NCBI GenBank assembly: GCA_964187785.1
Contig: OZ076409.1
Coordinates: 53,136,001 to 53,200,000 of the forward strand
From: Amphiscolops sp. MND2022
Taxonomy: Eukaryota
DNA length: 64,000 nt
Reading direction: 5' to 3'
Positions 3,675 through 63,291 of this stretch are shown in pieces (position 1 is the first letter of the stretch; the number at the start of each line of letters is the position of its first letter). The notes under the pieces were generated by a model. That model saw only the letters and a list, made by a program, of their open reading frames with translations. It was not told the DNA's origin and searched no databases. The translations under genes were made by a program, and so were the position numbers.

Positions 3675-4142
3675 CTAAAGTATAAACATGAGAGCACCTT
3701 GAAAGATTACACTGACTGCTTTCAAGATAGTGATAATTGTTTCGGGTTCGATCTGCGAGATTCCATCGATAACACACGTGGCAGCATTAATCACGAAATC
3801 GCGAATCAAATCAACCGCTTTTTCTATTTTATTGCAAATCCAATGGAAAAATTGCTTCACTGAAATTTTGACTTTCTCGACCAACTGGAGACGATACAAA
3901 ACTTCTTCAGCTGACGCGCCTTGGGGAATTTCCACCCTTTTGAGAACATCGTCTCTCAAGTCATCGATCGCCCCTGTGATTTCTTGTTCTATTTGTGCAT
4001 TCAGGATTTCAATTTCAGCAAGTGTTGGTTTTCTTCTCTGTGAGCATTTTTGCTTGATACGTTCTTCAGCATTCCTTGTCGCGTTTTCTACTCCACTCAC
4101 GGAAACGCCGAATGACTTCAAGAACGAAATACCATCAGACAT
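3675..4142 (-). CDS. 155-aa alpha-helical protein of unknown function, family member 1
   Basis: Open frame from the ATG at 4142 (MSDGISFLK...). IEILNAQIEQEI..LRDDVLKRVEI..EEVLYRLQLVEKV..FFHWICNKIE aligns without gaps to the products of 6776-7337 and 17208-17879. Preceded by TTTCAG|ttggta ATG. Confidence 0.75.
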   Translation of the reverse strand: MSDGISFLKSFGVSVSGVENATRNAEERIKQKCSQRRKPTLAEIEILNAQIEQEITGAIDDLRDDVLKRVEIPQGASAEEVLYRLQLVEKVKISVKQFFHWICNKIEKAVDLIRDFVINAATCVIDGISQIEPETIITILKAVSVIFQGALMFIL

Positions 4143-4651
4143 TACCAACTGAAACGAGTACCAACACGCGATCAACTATGTACGATGGTCACATAATTCA
4201 CTCAACATGGTCAGATGTATAACAAAAAGAAGGCCACCGTTTGCTTCGAAGATTTCCCGAGTTGAGTATTTTTCGTTCTCCATCGAAAAAGAATTAAAAA
4301 TTGAATGAAGCCAGAAACGGAAGAATCTCTTTGTTCCACCTGAAAGGCCGTGATACAGACAAGACTTCCAAGTTTTGATTGATATCAGTCAACAGTTTAA
4401 TTTCTCAATTAAATGAGGGCACGCGACAGTCTTTGTATACGAGTAAAAATGCCAAAGCTAATCAACAAATCTCTTTCCAAATTTTGATTAACTGCAATCT
4501 CACTGTATTGAGTACCAGAGATTCACAAAAATTGAAACATTATTGTAGTCGATACTGTCTCAACATGCAAGGTAATTCAATCTTCTTCGTTGCAACAAAG
4601 AAAATACAGAAGAAAGCAACTCTTGTAGGACTATAGTGTCAATTCCAGTAT

Positions 4652-6775: not shown

Positions 6776-7337
6776 TCAAGGCTGAGCAGGGTCCTTTTTG
6801 GTGTCACACTCCAAGCCGTCTTTCATTATACGGTCCAGTATTTTAAAGAGGTCATCTGTTTGTTTTTTCCTCATCTCCATATCCTCGATCTTTTTGGTCA
6901 AGTTTTTTGGTCATCCAAGAAGTCAATTGTTTGATAAATATCACCAATTGTTTACTCAATTCCATTTTGGCAAGTATGACTTCTGGCGCATCTTCTTCCG
7001 TGACTAAGAGGAGTTTAAGAAGATCATGTTTAAGCAATTCAAACACTTGCCACAGGTCTGATCTAATTTGATGATTCAGTTTTTGGATATCTCGCTCACT
7101 GAAGTAGTCGTTGAGCTCAATATGCTTTAAAATTTCCTCTCTCTCTTTTTGAGAGAGCAAGTTGAAGTTGTTGGAATCTTGGGACTGTGCAAAGAAGCGT
7201 CTCAATGCATCCATCATTTTCTGCTTTTGCGTCGGCGTTTTCAAAACAATGCGCAAAGTGAGCATTCTGGGTGCGTCGTCAAAGATAACTACTTGGGTCG
7301 GCGTGGCCAGTGGAGACAAAGTTTGACCTGAACTCAT
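6776..7337 (-). pseudogene. Family member 2 with a C-terminal frameshift
   Basis: PRMLTLRIVLKTP..KERE..EDAPEV..W..KKLD matches 17208-17879. After LDQ (~6894) the homology continues in another frame as KIEDMEMRKKQTDDLFKILDRIMK...QP* (stop 6778-6776). Confidence 0.75.
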
Positions 7338-8039
7338 TTTAACCTAAAAAATATATAGCTGTGAATGTTTGAAATTTCAGAACAAAACAATGAAACAAAG
7401 AATTTGGCGAACGCACGTTGGAAAAGTTTTTTTGCTAAATTTGTGCTTGGAAAAGATTGAACTAGAAATGCTCGGAAGCGCTGAATTTGAATTATTATTC
7501 AACGAGAGAAAACCATCCAGACTTTGCTTGCGACGTTAACCTCACCTTTTTCAAAACAATTTTTAAATAAAACTTTTAACTGTAACCGTACGTTTATAAC
7601 ACCTACTTCATCCAAAACATTTTCATATTGATTAGGCCGGCAATACCACAGAGAAAAACCAAACGCAAAGAGTCCGTTCAAAAGAGTAAAAAGAGTGAAC
7701 ACACACAGGGACCCTAAAAAACTGGAAGACATTGAAAAGAAACGAGAAATTCTTGAATTTAATGAAGTTTATTACCCAGAAAATGCCAATGTTGCCGGTT
7801 TCAGAACAATATTTAATTGATTCAGCAACCATTGGAGCGGTATGTGTGTCCTCAGGAGGAGCCACGACAAACGAAGAAGATGGAAAATGCAAAGATTTGG
7901 TGCTATTTTGTGTAAAGAAATTTTGTTTTAAAAAATAGTTTAAATTACATTGATTCCGCTAGGTTGTGCAATTTAAGGGAGATCTTTAATTTATTGCAGT
8001 TTAACTAGATCATTCTTTTCAGACGTCGGATATTTGTGC

Positions 8040-16772: not shown

Positions 16773-17207
16773 GTTTTCCCACCTGTTTTTACGTACCTGC
16801 TAGGTGGGCCATCTTAATTTTGCACATAATCGCACATTTTTTGAATTACAACGAAATTTTGTTTCGCTGGTGCCGGACGTTACATATTATCACAAACCGG
16901 AAACTTCTATCGAGGAGGGCGGAAAATATATGGCTTTTTTGTTTAAATAAACATAAATGGCCTAAACATATATGTTCGTATTTCAATTGCGTGCTTCCAA
17001 TCGGCTGTAAATGTATTACATTGTATAGGTAAGATTATGGATCCTGGTGTTTGAATGAAAGCTTCAACATTTCGTCTATACTAAAAAACATGGTTATACA
17101 TTTTGTGGCAAACAGTTTTCCTAAGAATGATCTGTATATGAACATCTGAAAAGCTGACGTTTCATAGGTTTTCTTCCATCGAATCTCTATGATGTTTTCA
17201 GAGAGCT

Positions 17208-17879
17208 ATGTATGGTATCGCGTCAACTTCTGGAAGTACATCATCTACTACTGAGACGGTCAACCATGATGAAACGCCAAGAATGCCTACATTACGCCTA
17301 GTGCTTACGACCCCAAAGACGAAAAGTTTGTTTGAGAAGCACTTGAAAGATTTCTTCGAAAATTCGACAGATTTCAAACTCTTCACGAGGAAGGAAAGAG
17401 ATGGTATAATCAAACAAGTTGAAAAACATGGACATTTGAGCAAGGAAAACATTGAGAAGATCAATAACAAAATTGACATGGAAATCGGAAAAGTTTTGGA
17501 GAAGTATAGAAACCAGATTTTAAAGGTTTTGACAATCACCGCAGAAGACCCACCTGAAGTTCAGCTTTGGAAAGTGAGAATGGCACGCGAAGTTGCTCAA
17601 AGTTTGAACAATCTTTTCCAATGGATTTCCAAAAGACTAGATGAGATATTGCAGATCGAAGACTTAAAGAAACGCAGAGCAGAAACTGATGACCTCTTCA
17701 AGAAACTTGATAACATCATGAAAAAGAGCTTGTTCGACGAAGAACCAGAAGTGGACATTTCTAATGGAGTATACCCTCAGGCAGAGAAAAAAGATAATAA
17801 ATTGGGGGAAGAATTGCTCACCAATGAAAAAGAGCCTCAAGCTGGAGAAACAACTGACAAGTTTCCGGAAAAAATGTAG
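17208..17879 (+). CDS. 223-aa alpha-helical protein of unknown function, family member 3 (intact)
   Basis: Uninterrupted ORF; clear paralog of 6776-7337 and more distantly of 3675-4142. Preceded by TTTTCAG|agagct ATG, with a candidate donor AG|GTAAGA at 17029. Confidence 0.85.
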   Translation: MYGIASTSGSTSSTTETVNHDETPRMPTLRLVLTTPKTKSLFEKHLKDFFENSTDFKLFTRKERDGIIKQVEKHGHLSKENIEKINNKIDMEIGKVLEKYRNQILKVLTITAEDPPEVQLWKVRMAREVAQSLNNLFQWISKRLDEILQIEDLKKRRAETDDLFKKLDNIMKKSLFDEEPEVDISNGVYPQAEKKDNKLGEELLTNEKEPQAGETTDKFPEKM

Positions 17880-21129: not shown

Positions 21130-22700
21130 AAATTGGGGAAAATAGAACAGAAATTGAAAACTCACTTAATGGTCGAGAGAGATGCTAGGAAGAGTACTTT
21201 TTGATCAACTTTTAACGGGCCAAAAGCTTGGTGTTTAGCATTGTGACTATGAAGTGATTGGATGGAACGCCTAAAACGTTGCGTTGACAAAAGTTATGAA
21301 CAACTCATTGTCCGAGGCGGCCGCCTGTGATGGGAATGTTTTTTCAAAAAGCGATAACTACCAGCGGGCCTTGCCGAATACTATTCCATTAAACTTTTTT
21401 CAAGAACTTCCAAGAACTTTTTTCCCTAACCAGGAAACTGTTGTTAATTGTTGGGTTGTTTTGATAAGTAAATCATAAGCGACATTTACTGCAATTATAT
21501 AATGATTTAGTACGTCTATTTGGACACCAAACGCACAAGCGAGAAGAAAACGAGTTCAAGTGCCTTCTCGCTTGACGCGGTGGACAAGTAGTCCAAAAAG
21601 TTTTCAGCCAATCACAATGCAGTACTATTTGAATCAAAAGTGTTGTTATCATCCGTCAGAACGGCTAGCTGAGTCTAAGCAACGTTCTCGTCAGTTGAAT
21701 ACGGAAAGAGTGCCAAATAAAGGGCATTATGTCCCAAGGGAAATTGAGCGCCTTTAATGCAGTTATTTCTTATTCTGTGACCTAATTGTGCTCTAGTTGA
21801 ATGGGTGATATTGAAATCAACCCCTCGTCAATACTCTGGAACTGTGGAAATGCAATTCATCAATGTATGTAAGTTTAGGCCTAGATGACCAAACGACATG
21901 TAATATCTCTTTAATTTAATTGCTATGCAGTAAATCGTTCAATATGCATATAGTGACGTCTTGAAGGGACCCCGCTAACTTTCCGCGCCTTTTAGTCCCA
22001 ACAAAATGATGTAATATGTCGTCATATTTAAAGAATGTTACTATTTATAGTCCTTGTTGATCTATTTATAGATTGATGTTAATCAAAATTAGGAGTGTCA
22101 TGTTGTCCTAGGTATTTATACGTGGGACAAGTAGGCCTCTTGACACACAAAACGTGAAACCTCTCTCAAGTATAGTTTGTATACCACATTGCAAGGATAA
22201 TCAAATATTCCTCTTGCACAAGTTCTTATGACTTCCACTAGAAGACAGAAAGCGAAAGCAAGAAAGTCTAGGGAAATGGACATGATGTCTGACCTTGACA
22301 ATATAGATATATCATTTGGGAATGCAAGGGTAAACCCTCTTGAAAGGGAGCTAGCTAATGCTAATGAAGGATCAGTTAACAACGAGGACACTGAGTCTAA
22401 CTCTCGTTTCAGGAGAAATTTGTCTCAAGAAAAAGAGATTAGAGACTTTAACAATGAAAACGCAATCCCTTGGCAAGACAGACTACTTGAGTTTTTGGAA
22501 GTTTTTACAAAATGGAATAAATTTGAGACTTCCCAAAGAAATGGACTCAATGATGTCATAATTCCGCGATATCTGAAAGAGTAATCCCTGAAATCCAAAA
22601 TATTGTGAGTTCATTGCCCTCAGGACATAGGGACACCGAGTCCGGATCATCCACGAATAGCCAGGAAAATAGAGAAGAAGTGAATGGGTTAAAAACAAGA
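21130..22700 (+). mobile_element. Decayed LTR-region relic of an element B-like family
   Basis: Same order as 43500 to 41606 on minus: SLSEAAACDG..NTIPL (vs AVSQAAAGDG..GTLPI), then the CAGCCAATCACAAT box, then MTSTRRQKAKARKSRE..NLRLPKEMDSMM (vs MPTTRKQKKAGKSR..NSRVSREMDEMM). Boundaries approximate. Confidence 0.65.
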
Positions 22701-22818: not shown

Positions 22819-23089
22819 TGTACTGACCTACATTAATAACCAATAGTATTTAGATGTTTACAGAATGTTCTAGAATGTACATTTATTTATTATTGAATGA
22901 CTGTAAATCTCTACTCGCTCAGAGAGAGAAAACTAATAATCAGTATTCGGTTGATTTCCTTTTTGTTCTACTTCTAACACCTCGAACTAGTTGTAATAAA
23001 GTTAGCTAGCTAGCCTGTCTCTTAGCCGCTTTTTACTAAGTTGTTAACACCATCACCACCAAAAGTAACCAACTATAAAAAGCAGCACA
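22819..23089 (+). repeat. Element A 5' LTR (271 bp)
   Basis: TGTACTGACC...GCAGCACA; AATAAA at 22995; direct repeat of 41048-41320. Confidence 0.95.
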
Positions 23090-23092
23090 ATT

Positions 23093-23104
23093 TGGTGCGA
23101 CTTG
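23093..23104 (+). promoter_or_regulatory. Element A primer-binding site (tRNA not assigned)
   Basis: TGGTGCGACTTG begins 3 nt after the LTR end. Confidence 0.75.
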
Positions 23105-23328
23105 TAAAATTTCTTGCCTTTTCTCCTGGATGATTTCTCTTCTCTCAACAATCATACAAATACCACTCTCCATCTTTGAAATTCTCTGGAATTGCAGTGA
23201 AATCTTTCTAGAATTTCTTGAAAATTTTGGTCTGTGACTTTCTGAATTTCATCAAAAAATACATCATTGTTCGAAATACAATTTCTCCACTACAACAATC
23301 AACTCAAATATAACGAATTTTCTTCACT

Positions 23329-23610
23329 ACCGGTTTATCACGTTTCCTAACACATTGACACGGTTCTTCTTCCTGCTCTTCTTGCCATACCGGTTTATCA
23401 CGTTTTCCAATACGTTGAAACGGTTTCATTTCAGACTGATTTATCCATTGTGACACAGTTCTCTTTCTCTTCTCTTTCCAGACTGATTTATCCAAAAGTG
23501 ACACAGTTCTGTTCTCTATACTGATTTATCACAGCTAATCCGGAAGCTTGTTGAAACAGTTCGTTGATGTTTGTCTGGTTTATCAATGTTTTCTAACACC
23601 TTTGACACAG
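23329..23610 (+). repeat. Six-unit stem-loop array in the element A leader
   Basis: Units CYG-RTTTAT(C)-CA...TG-AMA-CRG at 23329, 23389, 23435, 23482, 23520 and 23575. Confidence 0.75.
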
Positions 23611-24982
23611 CAACTTTCTTCAATCCTGCTATCTTGAACGTCAGGTGGACTCCTGGTGTAATAGTTGACTGAGTGCATGTCCAGCTCCGCTCACCTATAA
23701 GCACATACGTCTCAAGATCAACTTCGTGTTGGCAGAAAACCTGGATTTTCTACCTTTACGTTTCGGATCCATTTTCTACGAAAAATTCCTGCAAAATAGT
23801 TTTCAGAAATAGACTCTGAATACAAAAAAGGCAACCAAGAGTGTCTACAAAAAACAACCACGCACTATTCCATTTCTTTTCCTATTGTCGACAAACAATA
23901 CAAATAATTTCACAAAACTTAAACAATACAAGTAACTTCAAAACTTAAACAACACAAGAAAAATAACAACACAATCTACACTCAACCTTAAAACTAGTAC
24001 TTTCACCGGTAATAATTTTAACATAATCCTACAAAACAATTATTTTAACAAAATACCACATACAAATCTCACAACTCTTTTGCTCTAAAACCTAAAATAA
24101 GGCATGTAAATAACACAAACACTGTAAAGTTAGTTTTCTACTTTCAGGCTCCCACAATTCCTATCCCCTCCCGTAAGACTTAGACAATCAGACAGCCTCA
24201 CCAGCTTACTCTGATTCTAAGACTGACTAACAACCTTAGTTAAGTGTAAACGTCTTTAAGGAGAATCGAGAGGACACCGAACTACGTTCGAATCTTCAAA
24301 ATTCTCAGAAAGTAAAAATAAAAGTAAAAGAAACAAAGATCAAACTTTGATCTTGATCAGTATTGATCAGACTTTGGATAGTGGACGTTGATTGTTCAGA
24401 GTTCCACTCCCTTAGTCTTAAAACACACAACCCACTTAAAATTAAAACAACCTTAGTTTTTCTGGACGTGTCAGTAACCTTATGTTAGACACTTTAAAGT
24501 GATCCAGACTTAAAATCACATTTAGTTTCTATTAGCAATCCTTTGAGGTTGAATACAGATCCTAGTGCATCCGCTTCTTTCTTCTCTATCGAAAACTACT
24601 AACTTCCCAAATAACTTCAAATTCTTGTTAGAGCACAAATTATATGAACTCTAACATATACAATCAAGCGATTTATCCTTTCATTTATTACATTCCGCCA
24701 ATTAGCTCCCTTCAAAACACTACATCAAACGATTTTGAAAGATTAATTGAACGATATCAACAATATTTTTTCTTTATCATAAATCAACAAAGACATTACC
24801 CAAGAGCTCCAACTTAGAGAATCTCTATAAAAAATTACTTCAAACGTTTCAATCTTCACATTATAACATGTGGGAAAAAGTTACCACAGTAGTACTCATT
24901 ACAACATACACGTTTTGTGTCTTATTTATAGTTTGTGTTCTCCTTGAACAAATACTTACAGTGATAAGAGACAAACTTTAAA

Positions 24983-27900
24983 ATGAACTCCTCAACAACA
25001 ACCATTCTACCTTTTCAAACTCCCGTCAATAAAAATGCAAAAGTTGTAAAATTAGAACTAAACCCATTCCTACAAAACATTATTTCACATTATACACAAC
25101 CACTCCCATTTGAGAATGAACCTCATACAATTGAAACAATCCCTCTTATTAGAGAACATTTGGACACATTCCTCTTCTATATTAGATACAAAGTTTTAAC
25201 TATCACCGCAGAATACCCAGCTTTTCAAATCTCTTTTCCTCAACAAAGACCTAATTCATCTCAAATATACAGAAGAACAATAAACCCAATAAATCTCCAA
25301 GTTCCTATTAAACAAGTTTTTCTCGGTTTTTTAAACAATGTGAAAGACCACAACCTAGCACATGAAATTCCAAAATTTAGTCCAAATGCACTCGACGACC
25401 TCGAACGATATATAAACAATTTCGACGTAGAAATTATTGAAAGATTAGTTAATCCTGAAGACAATCCTCATCATTGGTTACAAACTGATATACTACGAAT
25501 TCAAAATTTCCTCTACCATTATTTCAAAGACTTAACATTAAATGACCAAACAATTCCTCAGATCAAAGTAATATCTCTATTCCTCAGAAAATACTTCAGA
25601 TTTAATTATCAACTATTATGGTCACAACAAGATCAATCTGCTTTTACAGCATTCCCAAAACATTTTACAGTCGACGAATGTTTACCATTCATCATCAGTG
25701 AACAAAATGAACATCCTTATTTTCATAAACCACAATTAATTACAAAACAAACTTTAGATTACATACGTTTTGATCCTCTATTAATTACAGAAAATGATCT
25801 ATTTGCAGACAATAGACCTTATCACTATGAACAAAATTCTCAAGTTCAGCAAAACTTACATTTTAACACTAACAATTATACTGAAGATGATAATACCAAT
25901 CATGAAAAAACACTCCAACAACAAAATCAAAAAGAAAACTATAACGATAATGAGTTTACTACCCAAGAATCTACAATTTCAACACATAATCCATCACAAG
26001 CAGGTACATCAACATCAGTACACACTCAATCCTTTAGAGTTCCCACTAGAGTTGTAAATCAGAGACAAAATACACATAGTCCTCAATCTCATTTAGATAC
26101 ATCTCCAAACTGTAATATAACTTTCAACCTTCCATATACAGATGAAAAAACACACGACGAAACCCATGACACTTTACATGATGATATTCTGACTACATCT
26201 AGTGCTCAGAATACTTCTGTTAATGTTGCATCTCCAACAAGAACTATTCCTGATTTTACAAGATACATTACTCGACCTAGATATGATCCTCCATCAATTC
26301 CCTCTGCTTTCCGCTCAAATAGATCGATTTCTTCAAACAACAATTGTAATGATAATCCTCAAACTTCCAATCAATTTTACGATCCATTTAATTATAACTT
26401 TTATCCTCCATCAAATACAACTACCAATACAAATATCAACCAAAATCACTCTCAAATTAATACAACTTCAACAACACAGAACCCTTTCATACAATTATCA
26501 CATACCACTGCTTCACAGAATATATATTCTCAAAATCAAGGAACTTCGTATCCTTCCACTTCTTATTCTCATATCACACAAGCTTCTCAAAGGAGACTTC
26601 AAAACCCTCCACTTACACATATACCAACTGATCCTTTGTATCAAATGCATCCAAATCCAAATCCTAATCCTAATCCAAATCCATTACCACAAAATGCAAT
26701 TCAACATATACCTCCTCAACTCACACAACAATTAGCTCCTCCACTCCAATATTTACCAATGCCACAAGATGCCTTTATGAACATGTCCGCTTCAATACCA
26801 GAACCTATGAAACGTTTTGATGGTTTAGACCATTCTTATACCCCAGAAGAATATCTACAACAAGTCGAAGCTAGATTAACCTTCGCCAAAGGTGAAGAAC
26901 CTCAGAATAATCCTATAAAATACAAATCTTGGCATAACAGACGCATGGCTTACATACAATGTTCATTAACAGGAACAGCTCTCAATTGGTATACTAACCT
27001 TCATATATCATATAAACAACAATGGAATTCCTTTGTACAACTATTCAAAAAACAATTTTCATCTCAAAAACAGCATACTACGCCCAAGTAGAAGCTATGT
27101 CACTCATGAAAAAAGATAATGAAACAGTACGCCACTTCGCCCTTAGAGTACAACAATTAGTTAAAAAGGGATGGTGTAATGAAAATGCAGCTACCATAAA
27201 CCTCAAAAATAATGAAATCTTTACAAAAGGAATACCCAAGAAGTTAAAAGATTTTGCCTATAAACGACAAGTTAAACATGTATCAACACTATTTGAACCT
27301 TCAATATCATTTCACACACTTGTTAGACATGTCGATTCTGAAGACATTGCTATTGAAAAAATTAGAACTAACGACTTAGCTCTAGAAATAAACAAAGTAT
27401 CGCTTGAAGATGATACTAGCAAAAAGGAATTTGAACATGAAAATCAAATAATGGTTACTCAATCTGGAGACTCAAATAACAAAAGCAAACCAGCTTATAA
27501 AAGATATTGTTCCTATTGTCACAAAAATAATCATAGTATTTCAAATTGTTATCAAAAACAACGTGATGATCAATACCAAAAATACAATAACCAAAGATCA
27601 CGAACTCCTCAACAAACTTTTGTACAATATTTTTGCAGTAAACCTCAACGAGAAAACCGAAATGACAATACAAATCCTTTCTCCTCAGATAATGATCGTA
27701 ACAAATATAATCAAAATTACTATAATGATAGATACAGAAATAATGATAGATATCGTAGCAATAGTAAAGAATATTCGCAACACAACTATCGATCAAATTC
27801 TCGACAAAGATATTACAATCGATCTCGAAGCCCATATAGATCTCGATTCGATAATTATTATCAAAGACGAACTCCATCTAGATCTCCATATAGATCTCCA

Positions 27901-30900
27901 CATAGAAATAACTCAAATTACAGATATAACTCTCGCTCAAGATACAGATCTCGTTCCCAATCACAAGGAAACTCCTTTAAATGATATAATTATCCATATA
28001 GATCTCCATCAAGACCTAGAGATTTTAAATCACGATCTAGAACACCCTCACGAAACAGACAACAAAACATAATAAATCAAGTAGACGTTAAACCTACAAA
28101 AGACAATGATAGTACAAAATTTGAGATCCATACTTGTCAAACAACAGAAATAGCTAATACAATCACTCCTTATAGTTGGTTTTATCCACTATATATTCAT
28201 GCTTCTGAAACAAATGATAACATATTACCTTCAAAATTAGAAACCTTATTCCTCTTAGATACTGGAGCATCCATATCTGTTTTGAATTTACCAACATTTC
28301 ATGTAATTTCCAAACAATTAAACATCAATGTTCCAACCAATCTTCAAAACAAAAGAGCCAAAACTCTTACAGTTGCAAACCAAACTGAAGTACTAATAAT
28401 ACACTATATTTCGATGACCTGTTTCACTGAAGTAAATCATCAAACGCGATCCTTTAATATCGATTTCGCCGTAGCCAATATCAAATACAACATTCTTGGG
28501 ACACCCTTTTTCAAAAAACACATCCAAAACATCGATTTTCAACAAAATATTATGACTTACATAGAACAACATCCAAAGCTTTCAACAAAAACAACATTTT
28601 CCACGTTTACAGAAAAGGAATACCCATATATTTCTTACATCTATACTATTAAATGTAAAGAACCAATTCACTTTAAACCAAGGTCAGGAAAAACTATACA
28701 TTTCCCAATTAAAAACTATTCAAATCTACATTTTGAACTTGAAGATAATACAAAATTCTATCCAACAAACCCATATACATACTTCTTACAAAAAGTTAAA
28801 GATATCTTTCATTTCTTAGATATGATAGTCAATGAAAAAAGCAAAGACTCTTGTGCAACCATAATTCAAAACTTTACATCTTACCCAGCCACATTACCAC
28901 GAGGAATCATTGGATACATAGAGATACCTATTACTCAAACAACTCCTCCTCACTACAGAGTTAATGATGTAAATTCACTTATTCACTCTGTAATACATGC
29001 GTATCATCCTGATACCACAACTCCGATTAAACAAAATCCATATGCAGATATGAACTTATGTACTAGGGTAACACCACAATCCCTATTAGAAATTAACAAA
29101 ATAGAAATCAACGACAAAACACTTCAACTTTCTATACCTTCTGTTACTGGAAACCTTCGACCCTCAGATAAAATTCGAAAAGATTTTCCTCCATTACCAT
29201 ATTCTACAGAAAACCAATAAATCATAAAAAAGTTTAACTTTGAATACTCAGATCTAACTGATACAGAATATGTAAACCTCTGCAATACTTTGATTGATAA
29301 TCAAAATTGTTACGCCAAACATAAGAATGACGTAGGAAAATTTTCTAATCCCTTTCGAATTAGAATAAAAGATAATTGTAAACTTCAAACACAAAGACCT
29401 TCTAAAGTACCAATTCATTATAGAGATAGACTAAATAAACTTTTACTAGAACTCGAAAAATCCAATATAATAAAACAAATTGGTTCAACATCAGATGAAA
29501 AAAACACAATTGGAACAACATTTTTAAACCCTTTAATTATTATCGCAAAAGGATACGCAATAAAAATTGTTTTAGACGCAAGACATCTAAACTCAAACAC
29601 CAACCAAGAACTTGAATCTTGGCCTATTGAACCTTTAGCTCCTCAATTAGCTAGAGCCAATAAAAAAAATAAATCAACTATTGATATAATGTATGCATAT
29701 GCTCATACACCATTAGACGAAGAAACGATCAAACTTACAGGATTTTCATCCGGTGACAAACTATACGCCTTTATCCGTGGATTTTATGGATTAAAGGGAC
29801 TTCCAAACTTTTTAACAAAACAAATGTCAACTTTCTTTAGATCACTTATAGACAAACGTTCTGCGTTGGTTTATATCGATGATATTTTATTACTCGCAAA
29901 TGAAAAACAAGAAATGTTCGAACTCATAAAAGAATTACATACAATAGCATCTCGAGAAAATCTCAAACTTGCACCCGAAAATCATTCTACATGTTACTCA
30001 AAGTAAAATTCCTTGGACATGAAATTGGTAACAACACAATCAAACCAATTCCATCCAAAATCGAAGCCATTAAAAGAATTCCATCACCAAAAGAAAAGAA
30101 AGATGTTATGCAATTTCTTGGCAGTGTTAACTTTTATTCAAAATTCATTGAAAAACTTCATATAAACCTTAAACCATTGTATACATTACTACATGATGAT
30201 GTTAAATTTCAATGGACACCTGAATTAGAAAAAATATTTCAAAATGTTAAAAATGCAATGACAGCAGACATTGAATTAACAACACCCAATACAACGCATC
30301 CATTTTTCATAACAGTAGATGCTTCGTTAGTAGGTTTAGGCGCAGTCTTATTCCAAATGAACGAAGAAAATAAAATGAAAGTAATCTCTTATAACTCCAG
30401 AATTCTTAACACACAAGAACAAAAACTTTCAACTTTAGATAGAGAACTTCTCGCTATAGTTTACGCATTACAAATATATGAATTTTTGATTATTGGATCT
30501 CCTCATCCCATATACATCTTCACAGATCACAAACCTTTACTACATTGTTTCGCAAAGAAAAGAAATCTTAGTCCTAGATTCTATAGAGCACAAATGCAAC
30601 TAACCAAATTCTCCAAACTAAAAATCATTCATACCCCTGGAAAAAACTTAACTGTAGCAGATATGCTTTCACGAACTTTTACAAAAGAACAATTACAAGT
30701 ACACCAATTACGACACAAACAATTACCACCTCAAATAGATTTCTCTATCATGAAAGATAATCAACTCAAACCAGTACATTATTTAGTAAAACATGAAGAA
30801 ATCAAATATAACCAAAAGAATGATTGTCATCCTATCCTTGCTGACTACGGAGACGACCAATTCTCTATCCGTATAAACAACAAAGGAGAAGATATCCACA

Positions 30901-32967
30901 TAAAACCTTTAGATTCCTTCTCTTTTCAATCTATTGTTCCATTTGAATCAAAATATAAAAAGCCTACAAAAAACCAAGCAAAATCTCTCTTACAACAATC
31001 AACAATCCTTAATGATACTGATATTCTCAGCGATGACGATGAACTAACTCAATCAAATAACATCCAACATCAAAACTCAGACATATTACATGAACACACA
31101 CTTGCTATACAATATCCTACCAAATCCGATTATTGTAAACAACAAGTTCCATTTTTTGATCCATCTTTTTTCAAATACAAAAGATATTTCAATTATTTCT
31201 TCCTACCAGAAGATACACAAATAACCATTGAAACAATAAAAACTCAACAAAAACAAGACACTGTTTTACAAAAAGTTTACCAATGGATACTTAATAATGA
31301 AAGACCCTTACAAATAGACCCAACAATTGCAGCTAATTCTTTCTTATTAGTATATTACAAAATTTTCAACCAATTAAATATTAACCATGATACAAAAATT
31401 ATCCACATAGATTATCATAATCTTCACGATTCCAATCCGAATCAAAGAGACAAAATATGTCTACCATTTAAACTCTTCCACGCAGCTTTTAACAAACTTC
31501 ATGCTCACGGACACTCAGGAATAAAAATATCCATCAAAGCTTTTAACCAATTTTACTTCATACCATATTTGAATAAATATCCTCAAATTAGAATTTCAAT
31601 TTCAATAAAAATTTGAATATTCATCCATGATTGTATTGAATGTCAACAATTTAAACATATTAACTAAAAAATACAAACTGCATCCATACAAACATTCTCA
31701 GAAAATGCTTCATTTTTTAATTACCGAATATCAATGGATACAAAAGGACCTATAAACCCACCATCAAATCAAAATTTATACATTCATGTTATAGTAGACG
31801 CTTTTAGTCACTTTGTAGTAACAGTACCTATAAAGCAAAATAATGCTCAAAACGCTGTTAACTCATTACTACATTATTGGATAACAAAATTTGGACCTCC
31901 TGTATATCTAGTTACCGACCGTGGAACAGAATACATTAATTCCGAATTTGCAAACCTTTGTACCACAATGAGAATTAGACATTCACCAAGAACTCCTTAT
32001 GCACCATGGACTAATGGGACTAATGGTCTAGTTGAAAATCAAAACAGAAATCTTGGAACTCATCTCAGACTTTTCTTACATAACACTCCAGAAAACTGGT
32101 CTACTCAAGTTCATATGTATGCTTATGCACATAATTCACAACCACTTTCTGAAATGAACTTATCTCCATATGAAATAGTATTTCATACTCTACCCAGAAT
32201 TCCAATCAATTTTGAACTCAATCTCCAAAGAGATACATATAGAAATTGTACTTCCCAATGTTGTCAAGAATTACCACTTCATACACACCATGACAAATCA
32301 AATCTAAACCCCTTCTTCCATAAAATTTTATCTAAACCGATCCCACAATGGATCTTAGCCACTGAAACTGCTATGATACAAATATACCACACAGTATATG
32401 AAAACACAAAAAGAAAAATTAATTCTTGACGCTTATTTAACGTCTTATTATTGACGTTATTTATTAATTATTAACAAAATTTTCGACATAACATATGAAA
32501 TTGTTAATCAAGATGGTTATACATCTCACATACACAGAAATCATTTAATTCCTTACTATCCAAAAGAACCAATTATTTTTCCTTTCTTACAACAGTATAA
32601 TCCTCATTTATTCAATGATATTCATTCGAATATAAACGATCAATTAATTAACTCCGATGAAAACCTATTTGGTGACGAAGATCAATTTTCTTCCACAACA
32701 TCTAATAAAGAAACGGATATACCATCCACAATCGACTTCCAACCAGAATCATTTAGCCAATATTCTTCATTTCCGTACCAACAAAAGGAACGAACTCCTC
32801 AAAATACCAACTCAGATAAACAATCAGATATTTATGACTATGATAATTTTATTAACCCCCGAAGACACTCCTATAATAGATACATTTTCCGCCCACAACA
32901 AAGAAAAGACTATCGACTTTTCCTTGGTGAAAACGATATAATTTCACTTTCTCAAAAATCCTGCTGA
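24983..32967 (+). pseudogene. Element A gag-pol polyprotein (disrupted)
   Basis: Capsid-like FDGLDHSYTPEEYL..W; zinc knuckle CSYCHKNNHSISNC; RS-rich tract; protease LDTGAS (~28255); RT YIDD; RNase H VDASLVGLGAVL / TDHKPL / ADMLSR; integrase HAHGHSG..CIEC, MDTKG, TDRGTE, NGLVE. Multiple stops, frameshifts and indels. Confidence 0.93.
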
Positions 32968-33136
32968 AATACAGAATACAGAAAGAAATACACAAAGAAA
33001 ATTTGAAAGAAAAAGAGAAAGTTTGAAGCTTAATGTGAAACTGAATGAAAAATATTTCACAAGTGATAATGAAAGACACAAATCCTAATTGATAAAAAAT
33101 TATAACTACTTTACAAATTAAATCAAACTACCATAA

Positions 33137-34606
33137 CACAAAGATTTCAAAATTGATAGACATATTCACTCACCATCATCAACCACAAATAACTCATCTT
33201 CTAGTTCAACACATTCACTCCAAAGACTACCTGAATATACAGCATATTTAAACTCAGATACAGACATACTGGATTCCTCATCCTAAAATCCCAGTCCATC
33301 CGCTCCATATACTCCTGATAGAGTACCAACAACACCCACCAATACACCTATAACCCAAACTCAAACACTAGTAATAACAACTCAATCACAACCTATTTCA
33401 AGAAATCGAACATTTGTAGAAACAAATTCACCACTTTCTGACTCTAATGATGAAACACTTACAACACCAAATACACAAGATACTTCAAAGATTTTACATA
33501 GACCTCCTCTTCCACCAATTACTACCACTCGTTCCGTTCATATCCCTGATCCCAGCTCAGTTCTACAATACATAAATTCTTGTCCATATAAAGTACCAAC
33601 CGCAACGAAAACAAAAAGAAAAACTCCTTTACCTACATTACCACAAGACCTTAATTTACCATCATCAAGTCATACTCCAATAACATTCTTACCAGAACCT
33701 TCATTGAAATCATCAGTGAAGAAATCACAACAACACCCAATTCCTTCACCATCTGAACTAAGTTCATTCACATTTTCTCAAATATATCCCAAACTTTAAT
33801 TAGAACGTGTACATTCAACCACTACCTCTTCTTTAACAGATTTTAATCATAAAGATAAAGATTCTGACTCAACTGCTAGTACTAGAGTACCAAGACATAA
33901 TTATAACCTTCGATCTCAACAACAAAGAAAATTTCTAAAATTACAATCTTTAACTAGTTCAAGTACAAACTCAAGACTACTTAGACAGCACGCCCAACCC
34001 AGAGTAGACACTTCTTCTCTTTCCTCATCTCAACCCACTATACCATCTTCTTTATCACTACCATTTCAAATCACATCAGGATTTGAAACAGCTTCTCTTC
34101 TTTCTGAAGACCCAGTAACTATATCAGATAGCGCAGCTAATTTTTCACGAGTTTACTCACCTAGTTCAATAGCATCAAACTCTTCTATACAATTACCTGA
34201 ATATTTTTTAGAAGATTTCTCAAGACCTCCAACACCAAACCCTCACGAATATCCCATCCGTGTTAATTCAACAATTGTTCGTACGCTTAACGAAGATCCT
34301 CGATACACGGTTTTACCTGCAAGATTTATAAACAATAGTTCACTCTCAACTCAAAGAAAACAAAGAGAATTACGAAGATTACAAGAACAACAACTCGCAT
34401 TAAAATTTGAAGTAGAAGTCACATTCAACTCGTTAGGACCTCATCCATTCTCTCTTTCAACAAGAGTAGCACACAAAACAACCCCATCACCATTCATAGT
34501 CACATCCATTTCTCACCTTTGTGACGCAGAATTACCTGAGATTAGAACAGGACATATAAACTTTTTTAATCCCTACTCCGGACTTAATTATAGAACAATA
34601 TTTTAA
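33137..34606 (+). pseudogene. Element A ORF X: Pro/Ser/Thr-rich accessory frame between pol and env
   Basis: One frame of ~490 codons with only two internal stops (33284, 33797); 33800-34606 is 268 sense codons. Missing from the ORF track because it has no suitable start codon. Confidence 0.7.
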
Positions 34607-34639
34607 CTATAGAACAATATTTTAACTGATGTTTTAACC

Positions 34640-37296
34640 ATGAACCAAATCACCTTTACCCTATACTTAATATACATAATACAAGTTGTTAAATACACGT
34701 ATATAATACATATATTTCACTCTTTAGTTCACCCTTCAACTGTTCCTAAAGTTGACACAACCAATTCCGAAAATCATATTTCAGACCTAGACCCTAACAT
34801 TTTAAACTTGATGGTATCCCATTATGATTGTGCAAAACAAAACAATTTAAGACAATTCAGTTTATTAAATGTCGAACCATGTAAACAAGCACCCTCAGAT
34901 ATACAACACACAAAAACCCAAGCAACAGTTTATGTTAGAGCAAAGGCCAAAAGAATAAAAGCCTTTAAATGCGAAGCATATATAAAGACTGAAAAGGTCT
35001 GGTGTTCACAAACATTCACATCTAGTAGACGATATGATCGTTTACAATGGGGACAAAACACATTAGAACTTCCAAAAATATTGGACCCTATTGAATGCAA
35101 AAACTTGATAGAATATTTAAACGCGACTGATAGCGAAGAACTAAACAATTACAATATACAAAGCTCTTTCTCATTGTTCGACGATAGTAACTATCAAAAC
35201 ACAATTGAACGAATTCAAACACTATTTAGAGTAAAAAAAAATTAAATACATGGCATATTGGAACCTTCGTATTCGATGAAAATTATCCCGACTGGATAGT
35301 TAATGTTACACAAAATACATACTCTAGATGTCGATCAGACCGAGAACATTTAATTACCCGACAAAGTTGGAAACTTAGATTTGTTAACACCGCAATAGAT
35401 TATGACGATGAAAACATTCAATTAATACATGACGGACACATATTACCATGCTATCATTCAGACGGATTTTGTAAACCAACGACAAAAACTCCATATACAA
35501 TAACATGGTTTGATGAAAAATTTTGCCTCTTATTTCAACTTCAAGAATTCATTGGTAGAATGACACGAATCACAGACAGACATTGGATAGAAACCGATAC
35601 CTTCATTGAAACTTCAAACATCACACAAAAACTTCAAACCGAAGGAATACAAGGAACAAGATATCCTAATGTGAAAACACCACAATCAAAAATAAGCAAT
35701 CCAAGCCTTTCTCGATATGAAATATACCCAATTGCACAAACCTTCTGTGGAAAACCTGAACCATTATTCTCAACACAATATGATCACATCTTTGTTACAT
35801 ACTTAGATGGTTTTGATATGAACACAGGACTACCAAAACCACACTCAATAATTGACCAAACAATTAGTGGAAACATAAAATATGATGACTCAAATAAAAG
35901 GAATATTTCCCTGCATTGAATATATCAAACAATTTCACCACTTTAGATTATGATGCCCACATTAATACAAAAATTGATTTCACAACAAATCATGTATTTA
36001 AATCCATGACAGTACAAGAACTAAACACCTTTCATACAATATGTGAACTGGAAAGAACTCAATTGTTAACGATCTTAGCTATGTCAGTTAAAAATCCTCA
36101 ATTAGCCGGTTTTCTTTTAACTGGAAATCGAAGTAACTTTCTCTACGTTGAAGGATCTACAGCATGGCTGTATGATTGCCCTCATTTTATATCACCACTA
36201 TACAAGGCAGATAAATGCTTTGATAGAATTCCCATACACTACAGAGAAACGATAATGTATGTTGATCCTATAACAAGACAAACTTTTAACTATGCAACAC
36301 CAATTGAATGTGGAAATAACCCACAAAATATAATCGAATTAGACCCAGACTCTAACGACGGAGATTTTTATGTGTTAACACCAGAACCACTCAAATGAGA
36401 AGCACCACAAATGTTTAAACCTACCCAAATTAAAACAACAATCACTCCTAATACATTTACCGCCCAAGATGCCGGTATATACTCAAAAATGCAGAATTAG
36501 ATCAATTCTGGAATAGAGTATTAGTCGCTAAACATTCAGACACAACCCTTCAATTACTTGGAAAATCATTAGGCTATGATTTCATCACAGTGCATAATGA
36601 TAAACATTCCTACTCAGGACATAATCCTTATAATCATTTAAGGATTGGAGTACATGACCACTTGTTAAACCTCTTACCACTTTTCAACCCTGACTGGTTC
36701 AGTCAAGCATTCATTAATTTCTTTGGATATTCATGTTATGTTTTAACACAATGTGGAATTTATTTTTCAACATTTCTTTTCATAAGAGAAGTTTTAATAT
36801 TTTTACTCAGTCATAGTTAGTCATAGTTTAGTCATAGTTTAGTCATAGTTAGTCATAGTTAGTCATAGTTTTAACATTTTTACTCAAATTCTACAGAACA
36901 ATTAGCATAAAATACAATCTCCAAAGCAACATTTCCATTTTGAGTTCAATAGCCCATGGATTTTTTAATATAGTTACATCGGAAATGGTAACCGATTTAA
37001 ACAATACAGATAAACGAAAACGGATATATACTAAACACAAAATTACAACAAGTGAAAATGATAATATCGTATTGCCGGAAAAAGAATTAAACAATAAACG
37101 AAGATACTCTGATAATGTCTCCCCTTATTTACCTCCTAAATATTCCAGTAGGAGTTCAACATTTCAATCACCGCAAAAGACACACCCAACTAATGTCAAC
37201 GATATTAATTCTCAGGACTATGACCCAATATTATCAAATGTAATAGCTGTACCGGGAAGTCCTGCTAAAGTCTTTATTAAATTTAAGACCTCCTAG
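34640..37296 (+). pseudogene. env: Element A env: class III (chuvirus G / herpes gB-like) fusion glycoprotein, disrupted
   Basis: Hydrophobic N-terminus; HYDC..FSLLNVEPC; ICELERTQLLTILAMS..P..AG; LYDC..KCFDRIPI..YVDPITR..TPIEC; C-terminal TM-like segment. Lesions near 35240, 35900, 36396, 36485 and a 77-bp insertion at 36809-36885. Confidence 0.85.
36809..36885. repeat. (AGTCATAGTT)x6 insertion with a 19-bp flanking duplication inside env
   Basis: AGTTTTAAYATTTTTACTC occurs at 36790 and 36867; removing 77 bp restores the frame (..IFLL-KFYRTISIKY..). Confidence 0.85.
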
Positions 37297-37737
37297 CTAA
37301 AAAGCAATAACCAAATAAACAAATTAACCTCAGAAAAAGTTCAAAAAATTATCAACAAAATTCTTCTCAGTTTAACTTTCATTCAAACCCAAATTCTCAC
37401 TCGGACCAGTCTCTCCTTTTCAACTCAACTAAAAATTCACTTGCCTATCACAACTCAGCTCTCAACCAGAAGACTTCAAATGGATTTTCAATCCATCTAA
37501 AAGACCGAAATTACAGAAGTTTCTATTCCTGGAATAGATGCCACTGTGATTGTTGATGTTTTCAACCCACCATTCACTCAGTTATTCGCATATTGTAAGT
37601 ACAATTTAAACTTCTATTTTAACAAACAATTTAATGGATAGAAAAGACATAACGAAATTTTTCCTTATTATTAGAAACAGTATAATCAAACGTTATAATC
37701 ATTATTTTAGCTCTACAAAAACACGCAAGTTTAAATA

Positions 37738-39030
37738 ATGGAATCCTTGCCCGAAATTGATGTAGTTAATTCTAACCAATCTGAATTGCTTGCATCCCCT
37801 TTGAATATAACTATTCAACAAAATGTTAACGAAGATAATAGCTCCTCTTCAAACTTTCAAGATCCCATAGAAACTATTCCTATTGAACAAGTAGATCATG
37901 TTAACGCAAGATCTCAAAAAAGAAAGTACCCAGATATAACTGCAGACAAACCTTTTATGGAATCTGGCGCTTGCCCTCCTTCCATAAAACCAATTAAACA
38001 AGATGAAGATTGAGATTGTGAATTAGTTCCTATTCTCTCATCAAAACAATTTACCTTTCAATCTCAGTTAACCTCGTTATACATGATTCCAACAAAATAC
38101 AAATTCATCATCAGAGAATTTAAAAATGATTATCATACTTCAATCGCTTCAAAATTGATCACCCCATATGATTGGTGGTTAAACAATAAAGTGAAAATTT
38201 TCTCACTCCAATACAACTTCCTCAGACCATCTCCATATGATCTTCGAAGCGAAGAAAATGATGCAAATTTTTTGCCATACCAAATCAAAAAAGCTCAGCA
38301 CATGACTTATCAGAAGTTTCTTCAATATAAAGAGCCCGATAATTAAATATTCTTCAACTCCAAATATACATCGCCATTCACTTTCAACTCAGAATATCTA
38401 ATAGATGATACCAAAACAAAAGGAAAACTTAGAAATTATGACCCGCTTAAACAAAGTTTTCTTTTCCTTCCAAATGATAACCCAAAAAGACCAATCATTG
38501 TACCACAAGAATACCTCATTCTGAACGACGATTCGTTATTACAAGAAGATATACCTCAAAATATATCTGATCCTCTTCCTCCACTTCAACATATAGCCTC
38601 TCAACCTTTGGGAGACTGTGAAAATTCTTATTTTTACGCAATGACCAAAAAGGGATATTCAAATAATGAATTAATTTTCATTATTTCTCACCTGCTTTCA
38701 CTTCTTACAAATGGAAATCATAAAGAACACAAAAAGACAAAACAAGAATCGCCGAAGAAAACCAAAAATGACATTCCTCAACCACAAAGTTTTCGCCCAA
38801 CGGACGAATTACAGAAATATACAGAAATTCTGAACATCATAAAACCCTATCATCATCCAAACCGAGATATTCTTATAACAATCGCCGAAATCGTAAATAC
38901 TCTTGAACAAACTCGAAGCATAATACAAAATATCGTATTTGATACGACAAGAATTAGCCAATCAGCTTTGTGTATTCGCACATCTTTAGACGAATTCAAC
39001 TACACAATTGAAAAAATGCACCGATCTTAA
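37738..39030 (+). pseudogene. Element A accessory ORF4 (~430 codons, unknown function)
   Basis: Track ORFs at 37738, 38083 and 38608 share one frame broken by only two stops (38011, 38344). Confidence 0.75.
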
Positions 39031-39436
39031 CTGGTAATTATGGGATAATCACTTTAAATTGTTAACACTTAATACTTAATCTCTTAACAACCAGTCAAAA
39101 TTAATTGAGTCTACACGCATATGCCTGCTATGCATGATTATAGTACATGCTTGATATTGAAATACTCCTTTAAAATAAAATAATATAAAAAATTTCAATC
39201 ACGACATAAAAATTTTTAACAAAATTCCTCAATTGCTCCTCCTTTTAATGGACCGATTTCAACAAATAAGTACTTATATGAAAGATATTTAAATACCCTT
39301 CAAAAGACTTCCAAAAAACATTAACTTAATTCTTAAAATTTAAAAGTTATAACATCACAAATTACATCAAAAAAATGTCAACTACGAAATTCTATTTTCG
39401 AAGGAACTTTATTGTAAACAAACTAATCTTTTTTAG

Positions 39437-40030
39437 GTGAATATCGTCACAACTGCTTCTTCAGCATTCCTTCCTCCTCTCAAGCCGTCCATTCAAAAAG
39501 AATTCCAACGTATCTTCTACAACTTTCAACGAATTTCTTCATATTCTTCAATATGACGACTATTCATTCTGGTGACACAGACTGCCCGATAGCTCCTCTT
39601 CTTTCAATTCCTTCAGCTCGATTGCGATCCTTTCATTCTGAAAAAGTATTTAACAACATTAAATGCGCAGCTCAAAACAGATAAAAAGGCAGACCCTCAT
39701 CTTACAAGAATGATATTGCTCAATATGTTCCAAATATTCCAAATTACACGAAAAAACTTTGACCAATATCTTCACATTCATAAACATCCTGATACATATT
39801 CAGCTCAACGAGACGCCACTACCCAAACAGAGCATACTACTATCAAGCCCAAAAATTTAGTACGAAGTCTATCCAACAGAATGCGTTCTGAAATGGAAAA
39901 ACAACGTCTAAATTCCTATTGGCCTTCAGACAATAACGACGATACCGATGAAGAACTTCAAAAAGACCCTCCAGAAGCACTTCTAGATGATAATTACCCA
40001 TACAAAACGTATACTTACGTCTCTTTCTAA
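39437..40030 (+). pseudogene. Element A accessory ORF5 (~197 codons, unknown function)
   Basis: The frame of the 39710 ORF extends back, with two stops, to a CTAAT...TTTTTTAG acceptor-like site at 39423-39436. Confidence 0.55.
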
Positions 40031-41032
40031 TATCAACAGATGACATCAACACACTCATCCGATGACAACCCATCTTCAAATCCAACATCCACAACGATTG
40101 ATCGTCACAGCTCAGCACCCGTTCTTCACAACTTCATCGCCGCCCAACAGCTGACCCATCTTCATCCATCTTCCAATCTTCACTCTTCAGCCATTGAATT
40201 CTCAGCCAAAGATGATTGATAATCAATAATGAAGAAAACTCAAAGAAAAAACATTGTGCATGATAATATTTAAAAAAGCTTCAATTTCATACCGAAAACA
40301 TTCACAATGTATTTATTATTTCAAATTTCATCCCCACCCATGTTTATTTGCCCTTAAAATCCTTTAATTCACACCCGTACCGATATTTATTTGCTTTTTT
40401 TAAAAGAATAATTAATAGTTATTATTTTTCGGTGCTATCCTATCCAAAAATAACGTATGTTAACAACAAATCTTTTCAAATTTCAACAAAACAAGTTCAA
40501 AATAGAGCAAGCACATTGTTCAAATCATATTCGAATAATTACAGACCCAAATTCTCAAAGTTTTTAACATTTGTTACATAACAAACCCGCCAAAGTTGAT
40601 CACAACCTGATATCTTTTCAGACAGTTTTCACACTCGATGAAAAAATTTTATCAACAATAATTTTTCAATGAATCTTTGACCTTTAACTCGTATGATGTT
40701 TGCTCACGTTTGGCCAATGCGAAGTTCATTCAAAGACTTCAACAGAGGCAAAAAAATTGAGCATCTACCAGTTCAAAAAACAAGCCGACGAAAGCATAGT
40801 GAAAAAGAACACTTTGACGCTTTTTGAACTGTAGTCGCACCTACGAGGTGTCAATCAAAATTTTGACAATTCGAGGTACACCAATGAGTCGAACTTACAC
40901 CACTCTTAAAGAGACTTATGCCAATCATCCATCAAAAGAAAAACGTTAACTAGCTGAAACGCTAAGAACCTTTAAACAACATTTTTTTCTCCATTTTAAT
41001 TAATGATGCTACTTTAAAATTTTATTTTATTT

Positions 41033-41047
41033 AAAAACCGGGAAGGA
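41033..41047 (+). promoter_or_regulatory. Element A polypurine tract
   Basis: AAAAACCGGGAAGGA immediately precedes the 3' LTR. Confidence 0.75.
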
Positions 41048-41320
41048 TGTACTGACCTACATTAATAACCAATAGTATTTAGATGTTTATAGAATGAATG
41101 TTCTAGAATGTACACTTATTTATTATTGAATGACTGTAAATCTCTACTCCCTCAGAGAGAGAAAACTCATAATCAGTATTCGGTTGACTTCCTTTTTGTT
41201 CTACTTCTAACACCTCGAACTAGTTGTAATAAAGTTAGCTAGCTAGCCTGTCTCTTAGCCGCTTTTAGTAGTTGTGAATATTACTACCGAAAGAAATAAC
41301 CAACCCTTAAAAGCAGCACA
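41048..41320 (+). repeat. Element A 3' LTR (273 bp)
   Basis: TGTACTGACC...GCAGCACA followed by ATAT. Confidence 0.95.
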
Positions 41321-41605
41321 ATATTCGCGAAAATCAGTGCGTTTGATCAGTTTTGACCAAGTGTTGACATGAACCAAAGCAGTCACTCATTAACCTCGAT
41401 ACAGTGCGGACGTTGTGTTAGCGATAATATTTCCTTTGGGACCATAGAATCAACTTTACGTAGTAGCCTCGTAGATAGAGCGCTTTGATCAATTTGTAAA
41501 TAAGTGTGTCGTTACAACGTCGCTGATAGAAATGCAGCGCATTGCTTACTATGTTAGGTTCAATTTATGCATAGGGGAGGCGCTTTCAACTAATTCTTCA
41601 TATAG

Positions 41606-42180
41606 TGTCGCAAGCATTGTGGTTTGGTTGATCATCATTTTGACGATTTTGAATATGCTCACTTCTTGAGTTATCTCTAGTAGATGCATTTCGCAGAACT
41701 TCGGCCGAAACGTTCCATCCTTTTCTGGTCACCTGTCCTGAACCGGCCATGATGGCATTTTGAATCTGAGGTAATACTTGATTACTAATGGTATCATTTA
41801 TGGCTCTCTGTATTTGAACACTGACACTGTTCATCATCTCATCCATTTCCCTAGATACTCTAGAATTCAATTCGTTAGACAATTCATTGATCTCGGCGTT
41901 AGAATTAGTGCCGACTGAGTTCTGGCCGTGTTCGGCAATAATCCCTGAACTAATATCTCTACAGCCCTGGAACAGATTTTCATTAACATTTCCGAAATTG
42001 TTGCTGGTAATGCTCCCAGGCCTTCCTGCCAAGTTGCTATCTACGCTCTCTTCTTTATTCTTTATTATCCGAACCATTAAAATGGTTTTCTCTTAACATA
42101 CCGTCAAGGTTTTCAAAAACCGAGAGTATTTTAAGTCTTCTAGACTTTCCAGCCTTCTTCTGTTTTCTTGTGGTAGGCAT
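41606..42180 (-). pseudogene. gag N-terminal segment encoded within the element B LTR
   Basis: MPTTRKQKKAGKSR from 42180; a 7-bp tandem duplication (42053-42066) shifts the frame, and removing it gives ..GSDNKEESVDSNL..NACD up to the LTR end. Confidence 0.7.
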
Positions 42181-56896: not shown

Positions 56897-56963
56897 AATC
56901 GCCGCGCCTACGATTTGGGGAAAAAGTAGACGCGAGGGCGCACACGATAGAGGACCCCCCAAA
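56887..56963 (+). promoter_or_regulatory. -1 ribosomal frameshift signal with H-type pseudoknot
   Basis: A AAA AAC at 56887-56893 directly before the gag TGA; pol is open in the -1 frame; stem CGCG.CTAC/GTAG.CGCG; loop TTTGGGG complementary to CCCCAAA (56957-56963). Confidence 0.8.
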
Positions 56964-62900: not shown

Positions 62901-63291
62901 CGCCGATAGCACAACGGAAAATGAAGTGGTTAAAACAACCACAAGCGAAGTCACAATGGAAAATGAGGTGGTTAAAACAACCACAGGCGAAACTACAATG
63001 GACAATGAAGTGGCTCAAACAACCACAAATGAAAACACTGAAGGAGATAGAACACCCTCCGACAATGTTACATCATTTGACCTAGATGTCAGCGATAACC
63101 CATATATTTTGACCCCACCACCGATACAAAGCCCTCCCAAAACACCCGAATTGCCGCCTATCGTCGTTGGATATAATCCTAGAAAAGTGGGAAGATACAA
63201 TTTGAGACCTAATCCGAGACCCAACGTGAATCCTGACTTCAGAATGCTAGACTCAGCTACTACGGAAAATCTGAGTCAAACTCAGAACTAA
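56893..63291 (+). pseudogene. pol: Element C pol (disrupted, with a 1108-bp internal duplication)
   Basis: ALVDSGA (PR); RRLAQGL, YVDD (RT); TDASF, ADFLSR (RH); HG..HPG..CQDC, DVFSR, TDKGSQF, GILE (IN); WTGPY; RYNLRPNPRPN. Confidence 0.95.
60134..61241 (+). repeat. Compound duplication: copy of 57075-57674 followed by a copy of 59624-60133
   Basis: 60134-60733 repeats 57075-57674; 60732-61241 repeats 59624-60133 with at least one substitution (APV vs AQV). Confidence 0.92.

Follow-up and report, generated by a model that had tools for sequence, protein, structure and literature searches.

The window analysed here (the whole stretch of DNA, 64,000 nt long) contains a decayed LTR element whose leader carries six similar short units in a row, and the question raised by this locus is whether the units act as RNA and, if so, what reads them. 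A preliminary description had taken them for repeated RNA hairpins and for a candidate packaging signal. The six units and their conserved internal motif were recovered where it had located them. The 5' half of the motif, CYGRTTTATC, occurs six times in the window, always within the array (shuffle mean 0.46, 0 of 100 shuffles reaching six), and a two-part pattern occurs seven times, six of them within the array (shuffle mean 0.12); both patterns were derived from the array itself, so that the shuffle figures overstate significance. The clustering of six unit copies is not due to chance. A search of the window with a covariance model built on the six units added none to them (best other hit 11.6 bits, E 1.8). 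Rfam gave no match at the gathering score, the best hit scoring 20.1 bits where 40 are needed (E 0.49).

The functional elements around the array were first considered (Table 1). LTRs, gag, pol in the order RT, RNase H, integrase and an env-like gene, i.e. the features of errantiviruses, are present, and by gene content and order alone the element agrees with an errantivirus of the HSV/gB type, under the operational definition given in the available text of PMC13524379. Its length exceeds the LTR-distance limit of 14 kb that this recent errantivirus survey states (PMC13524379, available text). The fusion glycoprotein family was detected by Pfam on two env pieces, with E-values of 7.6e-06 and 6.9e-14. 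All the frames are broken in the present copy. The PBS is putative, being placed from the position of the TGG only, and the available part of the supplement of PMC13524379 gave no match to a cognate tRNA. A 9-nt stretch complementary to the PBS, close to the 3' end, was rejected, as 340 of 500 shuffles contained such a stretch. The family is large, with 548 pol and 155 gag relatives; those examined were the best 120 of each, all on ENA contigs. Among the best 120 of the 155 gag relatives, identities group near 78-94% and 50-62%, and the CCHC knuckle is found in 8 of these 120 as well as in the present copy, most homologues ending ahead of its position. An atlas search with Gag returned weak generic gag matches only.

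Table 1. Coordinates of the host element, its parts and the units of the array (positions in the window)
Feature	Position	Strand	Remarks
Whole LTR element	22819-41320	+	18.5 kb, Ty3/gypsy, decayed copy, chuvirus/gB-like env
5' LTR	22819-23089	+	TG...CA ends; ATAT target-site duplication just before
Putative PBS	23093-23110	+	TGG 3 nt past LTR end
Unit 1	23330-23363	+	long hairpin, 8-nt loop; one apical mismatch in present copy
Unit 2	23390-23423	+	long hairpin, four apical pairs around 8-nt loop
Unit 3	23436-23458	+	short hairpin, 3-nt loop
Unit 4	23483-23506	+	short hairpin, 4-nt loop; duplicate of unit 3
Unit 5	23521-23559	+	longest hairpin, 6 apical pairs, one bulge
UCCGGA palindrome, unit-5 loop	23539-23544	+	candidate dimer-initiation site, adenine-flanked
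Unit 6	23575-23610	+	long hairpin; one apical mismatch in present copy
gag	24983-27984	+	frameshifted; CCHC zinc knuckle 27508-27549; RS-rich tail
pol	27985-32967	+	several broken pieces; RT, RNase H, integrase (gypsy order)
env-like gene	34613-37296	+	pieces; Monjiviricetes-type fusion glycoprotein, PF24664
Two extra reading frames past env	37735-40030	+	first interrupted by two stops
3' LTR	41048-41320	+	ATAT just after

The two LTRs match in 252 of 278 aligned columns, and their differences lie mostly within the last 60 nt (23034-23089 against 41265-41320), which suggests recombination between subfamilies or unequal U5 ends. The flanks of the element (22116-22584 and 41598-42096) resemble parts of another repeat (inverted match I13); as both are repeat-like, the element may be nested inside an older repeat element. 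Elsewhere in the window we observed two more gypsy-like pol remnants, at 52353-53290 on the minus strand and at 55703-63291 on the plus strand, the second with internal duplications (D1, D2); the covariance model search found the array motif in neither. Three short frames (3675-4175, 6852-7343 and 17193-17879) look like one small host gene family, and one of them shares a stretch of 33 nt with the gag start region (D9).

The leader, between the LTR and the gag ATG, is 1.9 kb long and contains eight upstream ATGs. The array lies in the interval between the putative PBS and gag, which agrees with the order of features first proposed, but not with a position "just" downstream of the PBS: it starts 237 nt past the TGG and ends 1.37 kb upstream of the gag ATG. 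In each unit, a short stem on the outside is followed by a fixed core that is asymmetric (CYG-RUU-UAUC / UGA-MA-CRG) and by an apical hairpin that varies between units. The unit halves are separated by gaps of 5, 6, 16, 16, 18 and 21 nt, and the loops of all four long units measure 8 nt. Units 1, 2 and 6 are duplicates of one another, as are units 3 and 4. The spacers are pyrimidine-rich, as had been reported (72 of 91 positions, against 54% in the leader). The longest AG-free run of the element (23210-23433) ends at TTTCAG before unit 3; it was rejected as a splice signal, this 223-nt run being equalled in 52 of 500 shuffles.

The core geometry differs in part from the one first drawn. The asymmetric core stood, while the inner CA/UG pair needs an indel; the indel-free register that fits all six units is UC/GA, with a bulged U and a next pair that is A-U in units 1, 2, 5 and 6 or C-G in units 3 and 4. 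The two-sided change at this second pair may have arisen as a side effect when the loops of units 3-4 became shorter. ViennaRNA predicts the outer stem with a pair probability of 0.92-1.0 in all units but prefers other registers to the inner UC/GA one, whose probability is no more than 0.01-0.15, which leaves the core geometry uncertain. In the outer stem, units 1-2 have C-G where units 3-6 have U-A, the very pattern on which covariation had been claimed. Its weight is small: the change is one event, made of CpG-type transitions on both sides, and its covariation score, computed on six units only, is reached by 43 of 500 shuffles. A kink-turn was also considered, as the units share with it a stem, a purine-first 3-nt bulge (RUU after CYG/CRG, in one register) and two cross-strand adenines. 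The kink-turn consensus has tandem sheared G-A pairs beside a 3-nt bulge and a canonical stem; both guanines of the G-A pairs are missing here, U-A and A-C/A-A standing in their place in all six units, and this candidate was rejected.

Folding energy is not where the array stands out. The whole array folds no better than its shuffles (z = +0.89), and the z-scores of single units range from +0.47 to -1.49. To characterize the apical parts we counted how many pairs continue the core in register and compared these counts with all leader windows. Units 2 and 5 each have six in-register pairs, equalled by 9 of 1578 and 8 of 1573 leader windows respectively (about 0.5% in both cases), and their apical sequences are unrelated to each other. 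Unit 6 has four such pairs (61 of 1576 windows, 3.9%), unit 1 has three (8% of windows) and units 3-4 have one (26-28%). An energy-based version of the test is weaker, with p of 0.04, 0.04 and 0.10 for units 2, 5 and 6 and of 0.46, 1.0 and 0.80 for units 1, 3 and 4. Apical pairing had initially been described for several units; three different apical stems are complementary in register on the core. Two other structured stretches are present in the leader. Three adjoining hairpins at 24336-24418 form its most stable part (z -4.3, 0 of 200 shuffles); their stems hold two UGAUCA palindromes, and this stretch is a candidate second dimerisation or structural domain on the basis of its predicted fold. 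Directly 3' of the array, a GC-richer multibranch domain (23626-23734, z -1.5) is repeated three times, along with unit 6, in protein cluster P0284.

Other family copies were read through spurious minus-strand protein calls that cover the array on ENA contigs, the residues of which inform codon positions 1 and 2. Searches with two such spurious frames gave 43 clusters and 10 representatives, 7 of the latter being new and related. We left out P0290, which is an unrelated repeat protein, and off-frame or truncated units (parts of P0257, P0269 and P0278-P0282); P0291, a false regex match, was removed from the outer-stem count. The tally comprises 77 long-unit readings in 43 clusters, with nucleotides inferred from residues by parsimony. 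In these readings the stems and the core are near-invariant and the loop codons are variable. The apical mismatch of unit 1 reads as a Watson-Crick pair in 36 of the 39 readings from other copies and is kept in three; that of unit 6 reads as a Watson-Crick pair in all 8 clusters, the second frame agreeing in 2 of them. Because most other copies read as pairs, the two mismatches of the present copy look like private decay. Compared with unit 2, unit 6 of the other copies has one pair changed on both sides and one extra pair, a difference that CpG decay does not explain. All seven variants found in at least five clusters map to a loop or to the bulged U (p 0.002 for lying at unpaired positions, 0.02 for loop against apical stem), values to be read with a cut-off chosen post hoc and clusters that are mutually related. 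Two paired positions carry CpG-type changes, each in 3-4 clusters; with both sites included the counts become 7/9 (p 0.03) and 7/8 (p 0.08). The outer stem is altered in 4 of 38 unit-2 readings, where the partner is unreadable; its covariation cannot be read in protein frames.

The same copies inform on the number of units. Unit 6 is tandemly doubled in 4 of 8 clusters, and the short units occur two or three in tandem in a diverged subfamily (P0278, P0280, P0282) that keeps the core with different spacers. In P0279 the loop is shorter and both arms are kept. Spacers are more variable than units among copies. A sequencing run, X1, has a junction from 23614 back to 23570 that matches a whole-unit duplication; it covers parts of the array other than units 1-2, and units 3-6 show spacer changes only. 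As read from these sequences, the number of units changes by whole modules. At the DNA level, relatives were also looked for in three collections. Viral contigs gave 0 loci by protein search and 15 by pattern search, with a full unit in 0 of 15. JGI metagenomes gave 10 loci, none of them element-like by blastn/tblastx and most of them unrelated tandem repeats; one (L023) is a short tandem repeat on a metagenome contig that holds both half-motifs by coincidence. GTDB gave none by protein, and by pattern seven single matches in bacterial MAGs, as judged from the listing. Taken with the in-register apical stems, the variation among family copies indicates that the array is probably a structured RNA element. 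The idea of repeated RNA hairpins is thereby retained, mainly on these two grounds rather than on the covariation put forward for it.

The loop of unit 5 provides a first clue to function. It contains the palindrome UCCGGA, with a predicted mean unpaired probability of 0.99 and a self-duplex energy of -8.7 kcal/mol, which falls between those of two HIV-1 palindromes tested. The LTR and leader together contain 35 hexamer palindromes, of which 9 are GC-rich, and UCCGGA is the only one of these nine predicted to be fully unpaired (0.99, the next being 0.68). A GC-rich palindrome is contained in 12 of 1587 leader 8-mers, i.e. a chance of about 0.6-0.8% for a single 8-nt loop, and a few times higher across all long loops. 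Among the 11 clusters that cover the site, 10 have compatible readings and one has a palindrome end base broken. The predicted energy of a unit-5 self-dimer is -29.9 kcal/mol, against 2 x -8.9 kcal/mol for the separate hairpins. In three clusters the stem end is 1 nt shorter, resulting in a 9-nt loop; the loop of HIV-1 SL1 is 9 nt in size. As modelled, the unit-5 loop is a candidate for a structure resembling a retroviral dimer-initiation site.

We put the probability that the array is a multivalent Gag-binding packaging and dimerisation signal at about one in two, this reading gaining from the palindrome in the unit-5 loop and from the CCHC knuckle in Gag. The hairpins would form on the plus-strand genomic RNA, set apart by unpaired pyrimidine spacers; the strand is deduced from biology, since both strands fold alike (-3.7 to -8.8 kcal/mol per unit on the minus strand against -3.3 to -9.4 on the plus strand). 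The genomic RNA would then present six or seven copies of the core, each on a separate hairpin. Several Gag molecules could bind the repeated core through the knuckle and the basic tail, and core-bound Gag would nucleate the capsid. Two genomes would meet by a kissing interaction of their unit-5 palindromes followed by duplex extension, as in HIV-1 SL1.

The structural evidence fits equally well a different reader, namely a host or element-encoded trafficking protein for which the hairpins would be a nuclear-export or germline-localisation signal and not a Gag site. Drosophila Egl, according to the available text of PMC13186709, recognises stem-loops that are bent but differ in sequence, two of them being required in each transcript, and a trafficking protein could be encoded by the two frames past env, which lie in the approximately 4 kb of element found there. 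On the other hand, the core is fixed in sequence here, unlike Egl signals, the exposed palindrome is left unexplained, and a Pfam search assigned the two frames to no significant family and to no known RNA-binding family. We regard a trafficking signal as possible, though on the unlikely side. It is unlikely that a giant invertebrate errantivirus lineage has a new RNA motif in a modular array of variable copy number, with one module serving also as dimer-initiation site, and that this array is read by an element-encoded protein from past env, either in a Rev/Rex-like system of protein and response element or as a repeat-based packaging code of a Ty3/gypsy element.

The array could also work as DNA, each repeat being a transcription-factor binding site or an insulator site. 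Words resembling the GATA, Pbx-Hox and Meis consensus are present, and a bipartite site could give fixed halves with variable middles as well. None of these words is found in all the units, however (WGATAR 4/6, TGATTTAT 3/6, TGACA 4/6), the gap between halves varies and no single DNA motif of fixed length is shared by every repeat. Nor would DNA sites give any reason for in-register complementary apical arms that resist change while loops vary. Arrays of DNA sites in errantivirus 5' UTRs do set expression (available text of PMC3383448 and PMC12992720), the 12 Su(Hw) sites of the gypsy 5' UTR being a case in point; for the present array we consider a DNA function quite improbable.

A neutral origin would require that a single chance hairpin was duplicated in tandem and that CpG decay, together with template-switch "palindrome correction", then produced what looks like covariation. 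The duplicated units (1/2/6 and 3/4), the CpG-type transitions on both sides of the outer stem and the lack of excess folding stability are what such a process would leave. A non-complementary core is nevertheless invariant in 6 of 6 units although spacers, loops and apical stems have diverged; palindrome correction would erase it, and it is kept even in the diverged subfamily. Moreover, CpG is no scarcer in the element than GpC (observed/expected 0.77 against 0.73). We therefore give this explanation little credit. Least probable is that the pyrimidine spacers are the working part, as splice acceptors or PTB-type sites controlling leader translation: a pyrimidine tract and CAG precede units 3 and 4, the leader has its eight ATGs and an IRES is described for some errantiviruses (available text of PMC3383448), but the CAG is limited to the duplicated pair 3/4, the AG-free run is matched by shuffles, the array ends far upstream of the gag ATG and the spacers vary more than the units.

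We found no description of such an array or motif in a gypsy leader in Rfam or in the open-licence full-text literature, and the packaging signal has so far not been pinned down in any envelope-bearing gypsy element. A repeated compact motif with a candidate dimer site, in a family that numbers hundreds of copies, would offer a handle on how Metaviridae Gag chooses its own RNA, and bears on whether kissing-loop dimerisation extends past retroviruses and yeast Ty elements.

Several known systems were compared with the array. Gypsy (Su(Hw) insulator), gtwin and ZAM likewise have a 5' UTR repeat array in an env-bearing gypsy element; their repeats are double-stranded DNA sites with no hairpin requirement, unlike the array, as far as the available text of PMC3383448 describes them. 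The repetitive structural motifs of coronaviruses, present in 2-8 small structured copies with covarying stems and proposed as multivalent packaging signals (PMC8206606, available text), are repetitive in the same way, but virus group and sequence are unrelated and the comparison is an analogy only. Ty3 belongs to the same family as the element, Metaviridae; it needs its CCHC finger for packaging (PMC4974528) and forms dimers by way of a palindromic hexamer that caps a 5' hairpin (PMC11381356). It differs by a 5' UTR of 193 nt, by a palindrome located within GAG and, in the available text of PMC11381356, PMC4974528 and PMC5454406, by the lack of a described repeated motif; its packaging sequences are stated not to be precisely defined (PMC11381356 and PMC4974528, same portions). 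Retroviral Psi is composed of dissimilar stem-loops and is G-rich, whereas the array repeats one U-rich core six or more times in variable copy number, and the palindrome differs from that of HIV-1. The likeness to retroviral Psi/DIS would be one of position and parts. With HIV-1 SL1 and the retroviral Psi-DIS (PMC5874298, available text) the array shares its location between PBS and gag and a cognate Gag with a CCHC knuckle. HIV-1 SL1 carries a purine-flanked GC-rich loop palindrome over an internal loop, which serves Gag as a major site (same source), and unit 5 is predicted to be built in the same way, with a lower stem, an asymmetric internal loop and an upper stem whose loop holds a GC-rich hexamer palindrome between purines.
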